Positions 1-9,000 of a DNA stretch of 64,000 nt are shown here, one piece after another. The first letter of the stretch is position 1, and each line of letters begins with the position of its first letter. The position numbers are program-made. The DNA is taken from NCBI GenBank assembly GCA_051532055.1, contig JAOPTX010000012.1, positions 1-64,000 of the forward strand. The letters run 5' to 3'. The stretch is from Fibrobacterales bacterium (lineage in GTDB: Bacteria; Fibrobacterota; Fibrobacteria; Fibrobacterales; JAOPTW01).

Positions 1-3000
1 CATCAACTAGTGATTCTGCTAATGAATCTTCTAGCTCTACAGTTTCTTCTGCGACAAGTTCTTCTGACGAATCATCTTTTGTTATTTCATCAGAAACTAC
101 TAGTTCGTCTGCGAGTTCTACTTGTGGTATATCAAGAGCAGCGCTATCGACAACTGATTCGTCAACAACAATATCTTCTTGTGGAGTTTCACTCAACGTA
201 GCTAAATCGATTGTTTCAGCTTCATCAAGCTCAACGGGTTCTTCAATTGATTCAATTGATTCAACACTGGATTCTGGTACTAATTCTTCTACGACTGAAT
301 CATCAACTAGTGATTCTGTTAATGAATCTTCTAGCTCTACAGTTTCTTCTGCGACAAGTTCTTCTGACGAATCTTCTACATTGGGCTCATCTACTATATC
401 TGATTCTACTGCTAAGACCTCTTTTATAGGGTCATCAGAAGAAGTATCCAATTTATTTAAATCTGATACTTCATCAAGATCGAGCATATCCTCACTTGAG
501 ATCTCATCTTCTTCAATTGACTCTGTCGATGCTTCTCCAGTCGAATTTAATACCGAATCAAGTACCTCAAGTTGATCAGAATCGTTGTCGCTATCTAATG
601 CTCCACTTTCTTCGGATACAGGGTCAATTGATTCATCCACAATTGTTTCAACAGTCGTATCGACATCAGATTGCGACTCTTCTTCAGTAACGTCACTCGC
701 CTCATCAGGAACAGATCCCGCCATTTCGATACCACCAGAGACAATTGCATCCTTGAACTGGTTCATCTCTTTTAAGAAATCAGGATCCTCTGGTGTCTCG
801 TCTAAAGAAATTTCTTCGGAGATAAGACCTTGACTCTCTAAAGCAGAATCTATACTTTTTAATTCAAGTTGCTCTTTTTGAACCTCTTCAGGAGATGGGT
901 CTTCGAGTAACTCATCTTGATCAGAAGTATCAAGGTTGACAGGAGTATCATCCCCCACGTCTATTACTTCATCATTATCTTCTGTAGGCTCTATTTCACT
1001 TTCATCTTCAGAAACATTATTTTCAGTGGGTTCAGATTCATCTAATCCAATATCGGCTGCGTCATCATCGATACTCGCAGCAAATTCAGAGTCTCGTTCT
1101 TCATCACTGCCAAATATTTCATCAACACCTTCCGCTATAGCATCAGGTGAAACAGTATCACCGACAAGCTCGCCACCTTCCATTGGTTCAGTACTCTCAT
1201 CATCGAGATCAAACATACTAAGTCCATCATCAAGAGAGTGATAGGGATCTAAATCAGAAATTTGTGTATTATACAATTCCGCTTGTTCAGCATTACCTAG
1301 TTCCATTGATATCTGGACCAAGTGATTCAATGCTGATAAACAGCGTGAATCGACACGAACAACTTCCTCAAAAAGGTCTTTTGCTTCTTCGATTCTCCCC
1401 ATTTGGAGAAGAACTTTTGCATAGGCTAAATTTGCTGTAAAAAAACCAGGGTTCTTATTAAGCCCCTCAAGAAGAATTTCTTCAGCTTTTTCTAATTTAT
1501 CCTCTACACGAAAGGTGTCAGCAAGGCGAACAAAAACCATTGATGCTGGATTTTTATCCAATGCCTTATTAAGTTCTTTTCGGAATTTTTTTATGGACAT
1601 AAATTATAGCTGGGTTAACTCTATCGCTTCATCAATCAGCATAATTGGTATATCCTGTTTGACCGGGTAGACAATAACAGAATCTGTTCGTAAAAGAGCT
1701 CCATCAATTGGTTCGGTCAAGGTTTGGCCCGCTCGATTTTTCAAGCGACCCTCAGTTATAGCCTTATTAATCTGTTCTACCATAGTAGAATCAGCTAGAG
1801 TTACGTCCAGTTTGGTCTCGGGACAGCATATAATGTCTAAAAGTGTAGTATCTATCATATATTACTTATCGTCAAAAATTCCCATTGCTGCATACTTTTC
1901 TATACGCAACTCCACTAATTCATCAATTGGTATGGATTCGAGTCGATTTAACTGTTCTTCAAAAGATTCTGTTAACGCTTCGAATACAAAGGCCGGGTGC
2001 CAATGAGCTCCACCTATTGGTTCAGGAATTATCTCATCAATTACTCCAATTTCCTTTAAATCAGGTGCAATTAATTTCATTGTCCCTGTTAATTCTTGAG
2101 CTTTAGAACGGTCTCCCCAAAGAATTGCAGCACAACCTTCAGGTGAAATAACACTGTACCATGCATTTTCGAGCATTAAAATATGGTCACCCATCCCAAT
2201 ACCCAATGCACCTCCTGAAGCACCTTCACCAATGATAGTAACAAGAAGAGGAACTTTAAGTACAGCCATCTCTCGTAAATTGCGTGCAATAGCTTCAGCT
2301 TGGCCACGTTCTTCAGCGCCAATTCCTGGATAGGCACCTGGTGTATCAATAAAGAAAAGTACTGGTCGGTTAAATTTTTCAGCAAGCTTCATTAAACGCA
2401 GTGCCTTTCTATAGCCTTCTGGGTTAGGCATACCAAAATTGCGATATACGTTATCTTTTGTAGATCGTCCTTTTTGGTGACCAATCACCATGACTGGTTT
2501 CCCATTAAATTTAGCAAACCCACCAACTATTGCTGGATCTTCACCATAAGCACGATCACCATGCATTTCAACAAAGTCAGTGAACATATTATTTATGTAA
2601 TCAAGGGTATATGGTCTGCCAGCCCGACGGGCTAGCTCCACTTTGTTCCATGGGGTGAGTTTTTTGTATGCTTTTGTTAATTTGTCGACTCTTTTTTTCT
2701 GAAGGGCTTCGACATCTTTCCCATCAATCCCGTGTTGTTGGAGCTCTTCAATTTTCTGTTCGAGGGCAACAACATCTTTTTCAAAATCCAGATATGGACC
2801 AGTTGGTATACTCATTAAGGCAGTGACCTCTTAAAAATTCTCACTGAGTAAATTTAAGTCAATATAAAGCAATTTTCACTCTTTTTTAGGCAGTTTTTGA
2901 TAAAAAAGAGCCGAAATGATTAATTTCGGCCTAAACGCAATTTTATTAAAACAAACAGGGCTTCTCGAATTATTTGCCCAGAAATCTTTGATTCTCCGAT

Positions 3001-6000: not shown

Positions 6001-9000
6001 TCTCTATCACGTACTTCTAAATGAACTGGTTGTGGTGTTCCCTGTTTACCATTTTTAATCCAATTTTCATACACTACTCGTTCAGGGCGTGTACCATCAG
6101 CAAAATTCATGTAGAAAATAAGACCTGCACTGGTAACCAGAAGTAAAAGGAATATATAGATCCCTAGCTTATTGTTTCTCTTATAGATCAACCAACAGAC
6201 CCACAGCAACACACCATTCATAAACGCAAAGATGATAAATTGCTTTAACTTACCAGTAAAATCATCTCCAAGAAAAAGCATCTGTGTATCAAATTCCGTA
6301 CTGCCACGTACCACTGGATCATTCTCACCTGGATCTACAATATACTCTCCAGGTTTAGTATACCGTACTTCACCAACCTTCCAAGGAAAGTACTGAGCAA
6401 ATTGGTACCCACCGTATCCCATGTGGGGAAACGAAAGAATTTGATTTTGAAGTTGACCTCTTCGATGAAAAGATCTTTTCAGCATGCTTTCAGAACCATA
6501 CTGTTTACGACCAACAAAGTCATTAAATGGTTTCCAGGCTTCCCATGTGAACACATCTTTTAAAGCGAGTTCAGGATTGTTTTCATCAATTATCGGGTTA
6601 AGCGATGAGCGAATCGGTATATATGCATGAGTTGAAAACCCAATAAGTGCAACCATACCAATCCAAAATGAGAGACGCATATTTTTCTTAAGCTCAGGCA
6701 CTTGAGAGATTGCATAGCCAATCCCAAGAGCAATAGTAGTAATAAGGCCAATTATGAGAAACTTGTCAATCATGTATACGATTGAATAGAGCAAAACCCC
6801 ACCTAGCCATAAAGGCCAACCGTTAATTGAGCGTTTGCTTTCATCAACAATAAGAACGAGGGCAAAAACTACAGGAATAGTTATCAAACTATAGAGGTGA
6901 AAACCTGAGCCTAAAAAGGCCAGATACGTAATCAAAATAATAATTTTGTCACCTTGAGCTGTATCGTATTTACTCGTCCAGTCAAGAGCAAGCCAGCAGA
7001 TAATCATTACAAAGAGCATTGCAATTCCATACACTTCAGCTTCAACAGCATTGAACCAAAAGGTATCTGAAAAAGTGATGAGGAATGATGCTACTAACCC
7101 ACCCACCGCAGGGGCAAGTAAATGTAATTTGTTTGTACTTTCTTCTGTCTTGAAGAGCTTATTCATGAAGTCATAGACAAACAAGAAAACAAAACTCACT
7201 GTGAGGGCTGAAGTTAGAACTGATATATAGTTAAACCGCGCCGCAACATCAGATACAAATGGTAATATGATATCGAAGAAACGACCTATAATCATGAAGA
7301 ATGGAGTGCCCGGAGGATGGGGAACGCCGAGAGTATGCGCTGCTGCGACAAACTCACCACAATCCCAAAACGAGAGAGTCGGTGCCATTGTTATGGCATA
7401 GGCAATAAATGCATTTAGAAATACTAAAATAAAGAGGGATAATCTGACGGTTTTATCTGTCAACTTCACGTGTTCTCCTTGGTGTTACTCTTTGAAAAGA
7501 GGTCTTGCGATTCCAGCAAGTACCCCATTAATAAAACTTCCTGATTCTTCTGTAGAATATTTTTTTGCTATTGCAACGGCTTCAGAAATTGCAACTTTAG
7601 GCGGGATCTCTTTTACGTACAATAGCTCAGTTACCGCAACTCGTATAATAACATTATCGAGAACAGCTATTCGCTCTAAGTCCCAGTTTTCTGAATGAGT
7701 GGTAATAGTCTCTGTTATCATTTCATTGTGTTCTACTGCTAGATCTATGAGATCCATGCCATATTTTTTTTGATCCTCTTTTGGGTCAAGACTCTCAATT
7801 ACCCCAGGGAGTACCTGTGGAATAGTTGAGCCTGTCACATCAAGAGCATACAGGGCCTGCATCGCCATTACGCGAGCTTGCCGTTTTGAAATAGTTCTTT
7901 TCGGGGCGGCCATTATATCTTTTTAATAAGGTTAATCATTTCAATCGCCGTGACAGCAGCTTCTGCGCCCTTGTTACCGAGCTTAATTCCCGCGCGATCC
8001 ATTGCTTGGTCAACGGTGTTGGTGGTTAACACACCATACACTACCGGTACACCAGTATCGAGTGACACTTTGGCAACACCAGAAGTAACACCACTCACTA
8101 CTTGATCAAAATGAGGAGTATCTCCTTGAATCACTGCACCGAGAGTAATTACAGCTGCAAATTTACCACTTGTTGCTGCTTTTTGACTTGCAAGAGGAAT
8201 CTCGAAAGCGCCCGGTACCCAAATAATTGTTATTGAATCATCAGATATTCCATGACGAGTAAGCGAATTACATGCGCCATCAAGGAGACTCTTTGTAATT
8301 ATTTCATTGAATCGCGAAACAACTATTGCGATCTGTACGTTTTGCGCAATGAGTTCACCTTCTACTATTTTTGCCATATTACTTCTCAAAATGTTAAAAA
8401 TCAGGTAAAAAATAGTAAAAAAAAGGCTGATAGAGGTCTCTATCAGCCAAATCTAGGAGGATTTTTTATTCAATCATCAGATAATACATGACCCATTCGG
8501 TCACGCTTTACCTTAAGGTACTGTTCATTTTCAGGATTGCGTGGAATCTCTATAGGAATACGAGAAACAACCTCAAGATGAAAGCCTTTAAGGCCTGATA
8601 CTTTCTCAGGATTATTCGTTAAAAGGTTCATTTTGCACACACCAATATCAGCAAGAATCTGCGCTCCAATACCATAACAACGAAGGTCTGATGCAAAACC
8701 AAGCTCTAGATTTGCATCCACAGTATCAAAGCCCTGCTCTTGTAATTCATACGCTTTCATTTTATTAGCAAGGCCAATACCACGACCCTCATGGTTTCTG
8801 AGGTAGAGTACCACTCCACCATGCTCAGCAACATATTTCATAGCATAGTCAAGTTGTTCGCCACAGTCACAGCGGCGGGATCCTAAAACATCACCCGTTA
8901 GGCATTCACTATGTACGCGAACATTTATTGGAACATCAGCACTAATATCTCCATTCACCATTGCAAGATGCTCTGCACCAGTTGTCTTATCAATGTATGC

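Follow-up and report, generated by a model that had tools for sequence, protein, structure and literature searches.

The locus and its gene order

What does a membrane glycosyltransferase of the TMEM260 family do beside two polyprenyl-phosphate-sugar synthases in a bacterium, and what would it glycosylate? The question is raised by a window of 64,000 nucleotides (positions 1 to 64,000 of contig JAOPTX010000012.1) from a Fibrobacterales bacterium, the genome of which is 94% complete and derived from runs labelled marine metagenome. A first-pass annotation had proposed a periplasmic O-mannosylation pathway that modifies proteins with Ig-like domains. We give about even chances to a reading in which the three genes encode a periplasmic, lipid-phosphate-sugar-dependent glycosyltransferase system, the acceptor being most likely serine or threonine in a subset of exported proteins, and not IPT domains.

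The three adjoining minus-strand genes of that annotation were borne out by open reading frames (Table 1), and we refer to their products as GT117, GT2a and GT2b. GT117 and GT2a are separated by 6 nt; between GT2a and GT2b there is an overlap of 4 nt if GT2b starts at 3639 (239 aa), or a gap of 2 nt if it starts at 3633 as previously annotated (237 aa). The terminator-like hairpin, a pattern match from a consensus scan that returned 12 sites in the region against 7.5 expected, may mark the 3' end of the transcription unit. At the other end, nusB follows ribH, ribBA, ribE and ribD, and the unit may therefore begin upstream of GT117. An RNA library of the same sample yielded contigs, possibly including some DNA, that cover 23 of the 30 bins of positions 1500-9000, and one contig of 756 nt (4346-5101) spans the GT117/GT2a junction, which is not proof of one transcript.

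Table 1. Features of the locus, in window coordinates
Feature	Position	Strand	Length	Basis and remarks
GT117, TMEM260-family GT-C glycosyltransferase	4578..7469	-	963 aa	ORF and PF11028
GT2a, ArnC/GtrB/PgfS-type polyprenyl-phosphate-sugar synthase	3636..4571	-	311 aa	ORF and PF00535
GT2b, soluble Ppm1/DPMS-like polyprenyl-phosphate-hexose synthase	2920..3639	-	239 aa	ORF and PF00535
Terminator-like hairpin, 9 pairs then T-run	2909..2931	-		Consensus scan; overlaps the GT2b stop codon
nusB	7485..7913	-		Pfam; 15 nt upstream of GT117, same strand

GT117 and the human TMEM260 enzyme

Human TMEM260 (CAZy family GT117) is a protein O-mannosyltransferase of the endoplasmic reticulum, with structures 9RQL, 9RQM and 9RQN. 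It is, to our knowledge, the sole characterized member of the family, and we know of no bacterial member that has been studied. The assignment of the bacterial protein to this family holds: Pfam placed PF11028 (TMEM260-like) at residues 36-211 (E 1.2e-53, 182 bits against a cut-off of 24.2, model positions 1-176 of 179) and gave no match to PF02366 or PF13231, precomputed domains comprise PF11028 and PF28495 (TMEM260_2), and human TMEM260 (9rql) was matched by the single GT117 sequence at E 4.9e-13 and by the family profile at E 3.1e-41.

This likeness had been thought to be confined to the N-terminal module, but it extends through TMH10 and the luminal Rossmann-like domain, and the family has a TPR domain at its C-terminus. 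The bacterial protein begins with a multi-pass membrane module, continues with a loop of some 115 residues, predicted to be periplasmic (290-403), and a Rossmann-like domain that bears G575-D576 and is followed by a helical insert, and ends in TPR-like repeats at about 798-960. By alignment, D36, H51, R489 and D576 are the equivalents of human D52, H67, R355 and D441. The first three are at least 90% conserved among aligned GT117 homologs, and G575-D576 is invariant (138/138 and 72/72 aligned homologs). Passages of a preprint on the human enzyme (10.64898/2026.03.17.711096) show that all four residues are essential, that D441 acts as general base and that the TPR domain binds the peptide. The C-terminal profile of the bacterial family matches TPR proteins, including the TPR of OGT, at E 9e-64 to 3e-40, with LapB and BcsC also among the matches.

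A confident AF2 model of GT117 (pLDDT 94.4, pTM 0.92) has a GT-C fold, with VIA Z scores of 21.5 to STT3, 19.6 to Pmt4 and 19.5 to ArnT in a library that lacked the solved human TMEM260 structure. With scores so close, the fold does not tell GT-C enzymes that act on protein apart from those that act on lipid A.

The two lipid-phosphate-sugar synthases

Both GT2 proteins are, as had been claimed, of the polyprenyl-phosphate-sugar-synthase type. GT2a (PF00535, Glycos_transf_2, E 2e-30) has ArnC as its best PDB match (E 1.1e-41), followed by the GtrB-like sll0501 (E 3e-26), and carries a DAD motif at 94-96; by hydropathy, its C-terminal part has two hydrophobic helices, at about 232-258 and 262-294. 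It is neither an ArnC nor a PgfS equivalog, since the NCBIfam models gave 158 bits (cut-off 529) and 142 bits (cut-off 500), respectively. GT2b (PF00535, E 3e-29) has its DAD motif at 96-98 and lacks hydrophobic segments. Its top PDB match is the dolichol-P-mannose synthase (DPMS) of P. furiosus (E 1.9e-26), and its relatives, which in Gemmatimonadota and Ignavibacteria are about 60% identical, are named 'polyprenol monophosphomannose synthase' by NCBI. The GDP-mannose pathway is represented in the genome by ManC (TIGR01479, 537.9 bits).

Conservation and linkage across genomes

GT117 has an ortholog in 156 of the 157 genomes of the order, the sole miss being a 71%-complete genome, and in 222/226 genomes of the phylum; GT2a and GT2b are each found in 153/157 genomes of the order. 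Among 139 genomes listed with rows for both genes, GT2a lies downstream of GT117 on the same contig and strand in 135, and in 124 GT2b shares the contig of GT117 at a distance of up to 6 kb (same strand and downstream in 123 of those). The order-wide linkage that had been reported thus stands, although the tightest partner of GT117 is the ArnC/GtrB-like GT2a and not the Ppm1-like gene as first supposed. In genus g7, GT117 still has the ArnC-like gene beside it, whereas the Ppm1-like gene is found on different contigs.

Could this adjacency be no more than inherited gene order, with the GT2 proteins serving other GT-C enzymes and the GT117 donor made elsewhere? The order rib genes-nusB-GT117 is common to the class-Fibrobacteria loci and one Raymondbacteria genome, and the larger block that runs on to accA is syntenic across Fibrobacterota into Raymondbacteria and contains functionally unrelated genes. 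In a closed 1.6-Mb Fibrobacterota genome (G231), family and protein searches found no GT117, yet GT2a, GT2b and accA are retained in order. The Ppm1-like gene has been relocated in genus g7, and no GT2 was found near an Ignavibacteria GT117 locus. The genome also encodes three further PMT_2 GT-C enzymes without a lipid-sugar synthase of their own; together with the retention of both GT2 genes in G231, this indicates that the GT2 products have consumers besides GT117. Nevertheless, GT117 requires a lipid-phosphate sugar donor, GT2a follows it immediately in nearly all of the genomes compared, and in other phyla it is accompanied by GT2 genes that are orthologs of neither GT2a nor GT2b: directly downstream in Raymondbacteria, and about 6 kb downstream in the same cluster in Zixibacteria. 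We therefore regard mere inheritance of gene order as highly improbable.

Candidate acceptors

The part of the original proposal that found no support is the acceptor by analogy with Ig-like IPT domains. The 94%-complete genome has no match to TIG/IPT (PF01833), and the published TMEM260 sequon has 0 matches in 4379 ORFs, so the only experimentally known type of acceptor is absent. The link that the first-pass annotation drew to glycosylated cellulose-binding proteins of F. succinogenes is conjectural; the present genome stems from marine-labelled runs, and its GT117 shares only some 50% identity with Fibrobacter orthologs. The family assignment, the types of the two synthases, their linkage and the presence of ManC all continue to speak for the pathway itself.

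A serious rival, which we consider possible but clearly the weaker reading, is that GT117 decorates lipid A, the LPS core or some other glycan of the envelope in the manner of ArnT/ArnC, Rhizobium Rgt/RgtE or the Gtr O-antigen systems. This caveat of the first-pass annotation still stands. ArnC is the closest solved relative of GT2a, the model of GT117 is about as close in fold to ArnT as to Pmt4, the genome has the lipid A pathway genes LpxC, LpxK and WaaA, and TPR domains are found in the machinery for polysaccharides and LPS as well, as the LapB and BcsC matches illustrate. Ten loci of other Fibrobacterota (L006-L015) keep the linkage, with GT4, flippase-like PF03706 and RmlD-like genes interposed; in further classes and phyla, Zixibacteria among them, GT117 stands amid such genes and oxidoreductase/acetyltransferase and PMT_2 (second GT-C) genes, a neighborhood typical of glycan clusters. 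There is also a precedent for mannose on lipid A: in Cellulophaga (Bacteroidota), D-mannose replaces the 4'-phosphate, the enzyme not being named in the passages concerned (PMC11065906). Against this, the one characterized GT117 glycosylates protein, the bacterial enzyme conserves both its TPR part and the base that activates the acceptor, the score of GT2a falls far short of the ArnC equivalog cut-off, no arnA/B/D-like genes were found by Pfam adjacent to the trio within the window, and a separate ArnT-like PMT_2 enzyme is encoded on contig C36. The GT117-less relative retains LpxC, which shows only that GT117 and LPS need not go together.

A second rival would make GT117 the missing initiating O-glycosyltransferase (OTase) of a Bacteroidota/Fibrobacterota general O-glycosylation system, acting at D-S/T-[ALVIMT] sites with a reducing-end hexose (mannose). 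According to passages of a review (PMC12871550), the OTase and core-glycan machinery are undiscovered, the pathway resembles eukaryotic O-mannosylation, the motif enrichment extends to Fibrobacterota, and mannose and rhamnose occur in the conserved portion of the glycan; here, a Ppm1-like gene adjoins GT117 and an RmlD-like gene occurs in related loci. Using a crude signal-peptide classifier, and 140-400 kb sampled per genome except for the source genome, we found observed/expected motif ratios in the source genome of 1.81 for predicted secreted proteins (3193 against 1769 expected) and 1.20 for cytoplasmic ones; control motifs gave 0.83-0.98, except D[AG][ALVIMT] at 1.32. Among sampled genomes with GT117 the ratio was 2.59 for class Fibrobacteria, 2.04 for Raymondbacteria and 1.57 for Ignavibacteria, against 1.09 for E. 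coli, which has no GT117, and of 14 control genomes B. thetaiotaomicron alone has a GT117 match.

However, the sample from Zixibacteria, with just 17 secreted proteins, showed no clear enrichment (1.42 against 1.32). The motif-positive genomes, moreover, are all members of a single superphylum, and descent therefore confounds the association of GT117 with the motif. G231, in which PMT_2 and Wzy_C were not found either, is still enriched (secreted 2.08, 62 against 30; cytoplasmic 1.26), and G195, 98% complete and with no GT117 found, has a ratio of 2.10. Enrichment that is kept without GT117 argues against GT117 as the D-S/T-[ALVIMT] transferase, and because even a closed relative retains it, we judge this role unlikely.

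Proposed mechanism and comparison with known systems

We thus favor protein as the acceptor, as for human TMEM260, the sole characterized family member. At the cytoplasmic face, membrane-anchored GT2a and soluble GT2b would each load a nucleotide-sugar-derived sugar onto polyprenyl phosphate, that of GT2b probably being mannose from GDP-Man. The lipid-phosphate sugar, from whichever synthase supplies GT117, would then be flipped and bound in the membrane module of GT117 via D36, H51 and R489. A single sugar would be transferred, with inversion, to a hydroxyl activated by D576 in the periplasmic Rossmann-like domain, the acceptor being held by the TPR-like C-terminus.

Human TMEM260 shares with GT117 both family domains, the four catalytic residues and the overall architecture (a GT-C membrane module, then a soluble Rossmann-like domain, then TPR). 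It differs in its length (729 residues in the solved chain); the bacterial enzyme has in addition the long inter-TM loop and, in the AF2 model, extended helical insertions at about 638-706 and 798-873. The human donor is dolichyl-P-Man, whereas the bacterial donor would be a polyprenyl-P-sugar, and the human acceptor domain and sequon are absent from the Fibrobacterales genome. The actinobacterial Ppm1 and Pmt system has the same logic, a polyprenyl-P-mannose synthase homolog (GT2b being of Ppm1/DPMS type) and a GT-C enzyme that would move single sugars to exported proteins, but its transferase is GT39 and not GT117, the Fibrobacterales host is a diderm with a periplasm, and the tighter partner here is a second, ArnC-like synthase.

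The ArnC/ArnT, RgtE/RgtA-D and GtrA/GtrB/Gtr systems likewise combine a GT2 synthase that has two C-terminal TM helices, as GT2a does, with an adjoining GT-C enzyme acting outside the cytoplasm. Unlike them, GT117 belongs to another GT-C family and bears a TPR domain, GT2a is no ArnC equivalog, and the trio is without GtrA, ArnE/F and PF03706 genes, although a PF03706 gene is present in related loci. With the general O-glycosylation of Bacteroidota, the source genome shares D-S/T-[ALVIMT] enrichment in exported proteins, a feature that two relatives lacking GT117 keep as well.

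Organization and genomic context of the locus

The three adjacent genes on one strand described in the first-pass annotation proved to be real open reading frames, and we refer to them as GT117, GT2a and GT2b. On the same strand upstream of GT117 lie nusB, at a distance of 15 nt, followed by ribH, ribBA, ribE and ribD; downstream of the trio are accA, a small Trm112-like ORF and a gene for a TPR protein. The host genome comprises 5.17 Mb in 181 contigs and is 94% complete, and the sequencing runs that contain this DNA carry the label marine metagenome. The closest named relative of the GT117 protein belongs to a metagenome-assembled genome designated "Fibrobacterales bacterium" (84% identity), identity to Fibrobacter orthologs is about 50%, and relatives are named in the databases either "DUF2723 domain-containing protein" or "glycosyltransferase family 117 protein".

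Coordinates of the three genes and of neighboring features in the window
Feature	Position	Strand	Description
GT117	4578-7469	-	ORF of 963 aa, PF11028 match
GT2a	3636-4571	-	ORF of 311 aa, Glycos_transf_2 match
GT2b	2920-3639	-	ORF of 239 aa, Glycos_transf_2 match
Trm112-like ORF	1604-1858	-	84 aa, between accA and TPR protein gene; weak archaeal Trm112 match (31.6 bits, cut-off 77)
Hairpin at GT2b	2909-2931		terminator-like, overlaps GT2b stop codon
Hairpin at nusB	7520-7504		weak
Hairpin, ribBA to ribH	8448-8425	-	strong, terminator-like
ribD-ribE-ribBA-ribH-nusB block	7485-11376		precedes GT117

A terminator-like hairpin overlaps the end of GT2b. RNA-library contigs from the same sample covered 23 of the 30 bins between positions 1500 and 9000 and left 7 uncovered, and a single 756-nt contig bridged the junction of GT117 and GT2a. 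These contigs are compatible with co-transcription of the trio and fall short of proving it, because DNA carry-over into the RNA library is possible. One RNA-library contig over nusB showed five mismatches to the DNA within 18 nt (7504-7521), near the contig end and overlapping a weak hairpin; strain variation and an artefact at the end of the assembly are both conceivable causes.

GT117 is related to human TMEM260 over its full length

GT117 is the sole gene of this genome to match PF11028 (TMEM260-like; E 1.2e-53, 182 bits against a cut-off of 24.2, residues 36-211 on model positions 1-176 of 179), and its precomputed annotation includes a second domain, PF28495, named TMEM260_2 in the Atlas. 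When GT117 was compared with the PDB sequences by phmmer, the only match was human TMEM260 (9rql, E 4.9e-13), in two segments that pair residues 15-185 with human 31-184 and residues 480-620 with human 346-485. A profile built from 72 bacterial homologs improved the match to human TMEM260 to E 3.1e-41.

According to the available text of a preprint on the human enzyme (10.64898/2026.03.17.711096), Dol-P-Man is held by D52 and H67 of the first luminal loop, R264 and Y267 of the donor-loading loop, and R355 of TMH10; the general base is D441, in a luminal Rossmann-like domain, and a TPR domain with residues N638, N642 and N680 grips the extended acceptor peptide. By alignment, the sugar-recognition residues D52 and H67 correspond to D36 and H51 of GT117, and the TMH10 arginine that contacts the donor sugar corresponds to R489; each is at least 90% conserved across sets of 138 and 72 bacterial homologs. 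The catalytic base in the human "RGD" aligns with D576 in the "TNGDNDT" of GT117, and G575-D576 shows no variation in either set (138 of 138 and 72 of 72 homologs). Equally invariant in both sets are R287, Y324, R487 and Y491 (the last two close to R489), W583, Q586 and W607, with R321 and Q323 at least 90% conserved. The placement of the donor-loading loop depends on the method: HMMER pairs human 244-270 with a region at about 333-360 of GT117, while alignment by eye disagrees and matches the near-invariant R321-K-Q-Y324-G325 to human R264-E-E-Y267-G.

The C-terminus of the family profile (positions 708-856) matches consensus TPR and OGT TPR sequences with E values of 9e-64 to 3e-40. Pfam TPR matches are present in GT117 orthologs, and none was found at E 0.001 in the GT117 of the window itself. 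An AF2 model built with 72 homologous sequences was confident (pLDDT 94.4, pTM 0.92). Besides the membrane helices, it predicts a periplasmic loop at 290-403 (about 115 residues), an alpha/beta domain at about 570-600 and 730-760, and a pair of long helical hairpins; the chain ends in helical repeats. Residues of about 800-963 in the model resemble three-repeat TPR domains with Z scores of 12.6-13.8, a range that helical repeats alone can give.

We compared the model by Foldseek and VIA with a library of PDB structures until 2026-04-08 that does not include the TMEM260 entries. The best VIA matches were STT3 (Z 21.5, rmsd 5.5, 446 residues aligned), Pmt4 (Z 19.6, rmsd 4.0, 381 aligned) and ArnT (Z 19.5, rmsd 4.8, 437 aligned). 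These comparisons of a predicted structure confirm a GT-C fold, with near-ties among the best matches, and the order of STT3, Pmt4, ArnT and ALG proteins (Z 16-21.5) in such a model does not tell us which acceptor is used. The relationship of the 963-aa protein to human TMEM260 thus spans its whole length, and the assignment to the TMEM260 family is firmer than the first-pass annotation had supposed.

Two putative lipid-phosphate sugar synthases

GT2a has a DAD motif and two hydrophobic helices at its C-terminus. Of the solved structures, its best match is ArnC (E 1.1e-41) and its next the GtrB-like sll0501, and GT2a scores far under the NCBIfam equivalog cut-offs for both ArnC (158 against 529 bits) and PgfS (142 against 500 bits). 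GT2b likewise has a DAD motif and is devoid of a hydrophobic segment; its closest solved structure is the Dol-P-Man synthase of P. furiosus (E 1.9e-26), and relatives in Gemmatimonadota and Ignavibacteria, at about 60% identity, are named "polyprenol monophosphomannose synthase". It is only from the names of these relatives and the similarity to Dol-P-Man synthase that GT2b appears Ppm1-like. Three other GT-Cs (PMT_2) are encoded in the genome and none has its own lipid-sugar synthase, so GT2a and GT2b probably supply more than one transferase.

Two other loci with glycosyltransferase genes are present in the genome. One, a second candidate three-component cluster (contig C56, L028:4339-11166), encodes an 827-aa membrane protein whose C-terminal match to YfhO is weak (24.6 bits, under the cut-off), together with a 334-aa GT2 and a flippase-like PF03706 protein. 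It also encodes three methyltransferases, of which one has an ArsR-type HTH. The other (contig C34, L025:8164-16079) has two divergent PMT_2-type GT-Cs of 764 and 767 aa beside a 1095-aa sulfatase-family protein; NPCBM/NEW2 carbohydrate-binding domains terminate one PMT_2 protein and the sulfatase-family protein, and a CotH-like protein is encoded close by.

Conservation of the pairing

Across the order, GT117 was present in 156 of 157 genomes, and GT2a and GT2b in 153 of 157 each. Among the 139 genomes in which both genes of a pair were listed, GT2a lay downstream of GT117 on the same contig and strand in 135. The four exceptions comprise one genome with a second GT117 piece on the contig of GT2a (G014) and three in which the genes are on different contigs, GT2a being truncated by the end of its contig in two cases. 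GT2b was within 6 kb of GT117 in 124 of the 139, and 7 of the 15 exceptions fall in a single genus (g7), where GT2a remains adjacent. Phylum-wide, GT117 was found in 222 of 226 Fibrobacterota genomes of at least 85% completeness, a tally that takes in one unpublished genome (G239), which entered the analysis for this count alone.

At ten loci from other Fibrobacterota (L006-L015) the order GT117, GT2a, GT2b is kept with wider spacing. One of these, L007, reads rib genes-nusB-GT117-GT4-PF03706 (flippase-like)-GT2a-RmlD-like-GT2b-GT2/CoA-binding-accA. The Zixibacteria locus reads GT117-GT4-PF03706-PMT_2-oxidoreductase-acetyltransferase-GT2 and that of Raymondbacteria rib genes-nusB-GT117-GT2; near the Ignavibacteria GT117 there was no GT2. 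From these counts and gene orders, GT117 is repeatedly paired with a lipid-sugar synthase, and its constant neighbor is the ArnC-like gene. The block around the trio is plainly syntenic too, which might suggest that the adjacency of the three genes is mere synteny; beside the recurrent pairing, we regard this as very improbable.

The order ribD-ribE-ribBA-ribH-nusB-GT117 (also at L007 and L016) is common to this genome, class-Fibrobacteria MAGs and a Raymondbacteria genome; in the window, a strong terminator-like hairpin separates ribBA from ribH. Cluster members of ten diverse GT117 representatives carried FCB-type names only (Fibrobacterota, Stahlbacteria, Kapabacteria), a sample that is silent on how far the family extends outside such lineages; look-alikes in the Atlas likewise came from WOR-3, Krumholzibacteriota, Fidelibacterota, Eiseniibacteriota and Verrucomicrobiota.

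The acceptor

The first-pass annotation had proposed periplasmic protein O-mannosylation, with an acceptor analogous to the IPT domains modified by human TMEM260. The analogy was not supported: there was no match to TIG/IPT (PF01833) in the 94%-complete genome, and among 4379 ORFs of at least 100 aa the TMEM260 sequon P-x5-P-x3-G-P-x2-[GA]-G-G-x2-[TS] had no strict and no PLXNB2-spaced match, a loose form giving 2 matches against 0-1 in shuffles. Because both the domain and the sequon are absent, a human-type acceptor is excluded for this genome, a conclusion that concerns the acceptor and not family membership.

There is good support for a pathway in which lipid-phosphate sugar synthases work with a periplasmic GT117 transferase; its donor sugar, the synthase that feeds GT117 and the acceptor are all three our inferences. 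As genomic context for a putative mannose transfer from polyisoprenyl-phosphate-mannose, a Ppm1/DPMS-like gene is adjacent to GT117 and a ManC-type GDP-mannose gene lies elsewhere in the genome. We give about even odds to GT117 being a protein-specific O-glycosyltransferase whose targets are a subset of exported proteins. Protein is the substrate of the sole family member characterized so far; the acceptor-activating base of that member is conserved here, and its TPR part at the level of the family. It is less probable, though a serious alternative, that GT117 modifies LPS or another glycan. The genome encodes the lipid A pathway, related loci resemble glycan clusters (with GT4, PF03706, RmlD-like and PMT_2 neighbors), LapB and BcsC also contain TPR domains, and Cellulophaga has mannosylated lipid A (PMC11065906), for which the available text of that paper names no enzyme. 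Searches of the literature on envelope glycolipids found no Fibrobacter paper, and an article on three-component systems (PMC11127046) mentions neither DUF, TPR nor Bacteroidota.

Relation to general O-glycosylation

According to the available text of a 2025 review (PMC12871550), the general O-glycosylation system of Bacteroidota modifies D-S/T-[ALVIMT] sites with a core that contains mannose, rhamnose and glucuronic acid; similar motif enrichment is reported there for Fibrobacterota, the core pathway is likened to eukaryotic O-mannosylation, and the initiating O-glycosyltransferase (OTase), core flippase and ligase are described as undiscovered. We calculated observed over expected D[ST][ALVIMT] counts with a composition-based expectation and a crude signal-peptide classifier.

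Ratio of observed to expected D[ST][ALVIMT] in secreted and cytoplasmic proteins
Genome	GT117	Secreted	Cytoplasmic	Sample
Genome of the window	yes	1.81 (3193 vs 1769)	1.20	981 secreted, 1121 cytoplasmic proteins
Class Fibrobacteria (G160)	yes	2.59	1.40	400 kb
Raymondbacteria (G157)	yes	2.04	1.15	373 kb
Ignavibacteria (G158)	yes	1.57	0.92	400 kb
Zixibacteria (G159)	yes	1.42	1.32	17 secreted proteins, sample too small
E. coli K-12	no	1.09	0.86	400 kb
G231, closed, 1.6 Mb	no	2.08	1.26	400 kb
G195, 98% complete	none found	2.10	1.12	186 kb

The motif was enriched 1.6- to 2.6-fold in exported proteins of the window's genome and of the class Fibrobacteria, Raymondbacteria and Ignavibacteria, against 1.09 in the E. 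coli sample. In the window's genome the ratio was 1.48 for predicted membrane proteins; among secreted proteins it ranged from 0.83 to 0.98 for control motifs, with D[AG][ALVIMT] at 1.32. The Raymondbacteria enrichment falls outside both phyla named in the available text of the review.

These data bear on a broader proposal, that GT117, given polyprenyl-phosphate-mannose by the Ppm1-like synthase, would be the initiating O-mannosyltransferase of general O-glycosylation in Bacteroidota, Fibrobacterota and neighboring FCB phyla, at D-S/T-[ALVIMT] and with a core that begins with mannose. A second lipid-linked sugar (e.g. a hexuronic acid) for periplasmic core extension would then come from the ArnC/RgtE-like GT2, and human TMEM260 would be a eukaryotic descendant or relative of a proteome-wide bacterial enzyme. 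However, the closed Fibrobacterota genome G231, in which neither family nor protein search found GT117, is still enriched, as is G195. GT117 would thus be dispensable for the motif signal, unless that signal is a relic of recent loss, and because the enrichment persists in these genomes we consider the proposal improbable. G231 also has no PMT_2 and no Wzy_C; it keeps LpxC and has a YfhO-like GT-C.

In G231 (L157, C1:886001-906000), a 1152-aa protein with 11 Big_2 repeats (ORF 12534-15992, minus strand) takes the place of GT117 upstream of GT2a. The locus retains GT2a and GT2b, here separated by an OTCase-like gene, as well as accA and the TPR protein.

Significance and comparison with known systems

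Literature searches found no characterized bacterial GT117, although the conservation figure (S8) of the preprint may include bacterial homologs. As far as we found, then, GT117 is uncharacterized in bacteria, yet it is nearly universal in Fibrobacterota and keeps the essential residues of the human enzyme. The GT117 family underlies a human congenital heart syndrome. Were the acceptor a protein, diderms would have a periplasmic O-glycosylation route that employs the enzyme family of this syndrome, and tractable organisms could be used to study it, Bacteroides thetaiotaomicron among them, in which a PF11028 gene is present; were it LPS or another glycan, this would be the first non-protein activity within GT117. 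The results also bear on a question posed in the available text of PMC12871550, namely which enzyme starts general O-glycosylation in Bacteroidota and their relatives: the enrichment in relatives without GT117 weakens this family as the OTase candidate and usefully narrows the search.

Compared with the ArnC/ArnT system for lipid A aminoarabinose, GT2a scores below the ArnC cut-off, the GT-C of the window has no PMT_2 or PMT match, and the trio is flanked by nusB, rib genes and accA where arnA, arnB and arnD would be expected; we therefore do not assign the trio to that system. Nor do we assign it to the actinobacterial type of O-mannosylation, which pairs a GT39 Pmt (PF02366) with Ppm1, since the 963-aa transferase has no PF02366 match. 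With the general O-glycosylation of Bacteroidota, this genome shares the enrichment of D-S/T-[ALVIMT] in its non-cytoplasmic proteins (1.81 against 1.20 in cytoplasmic proteins).
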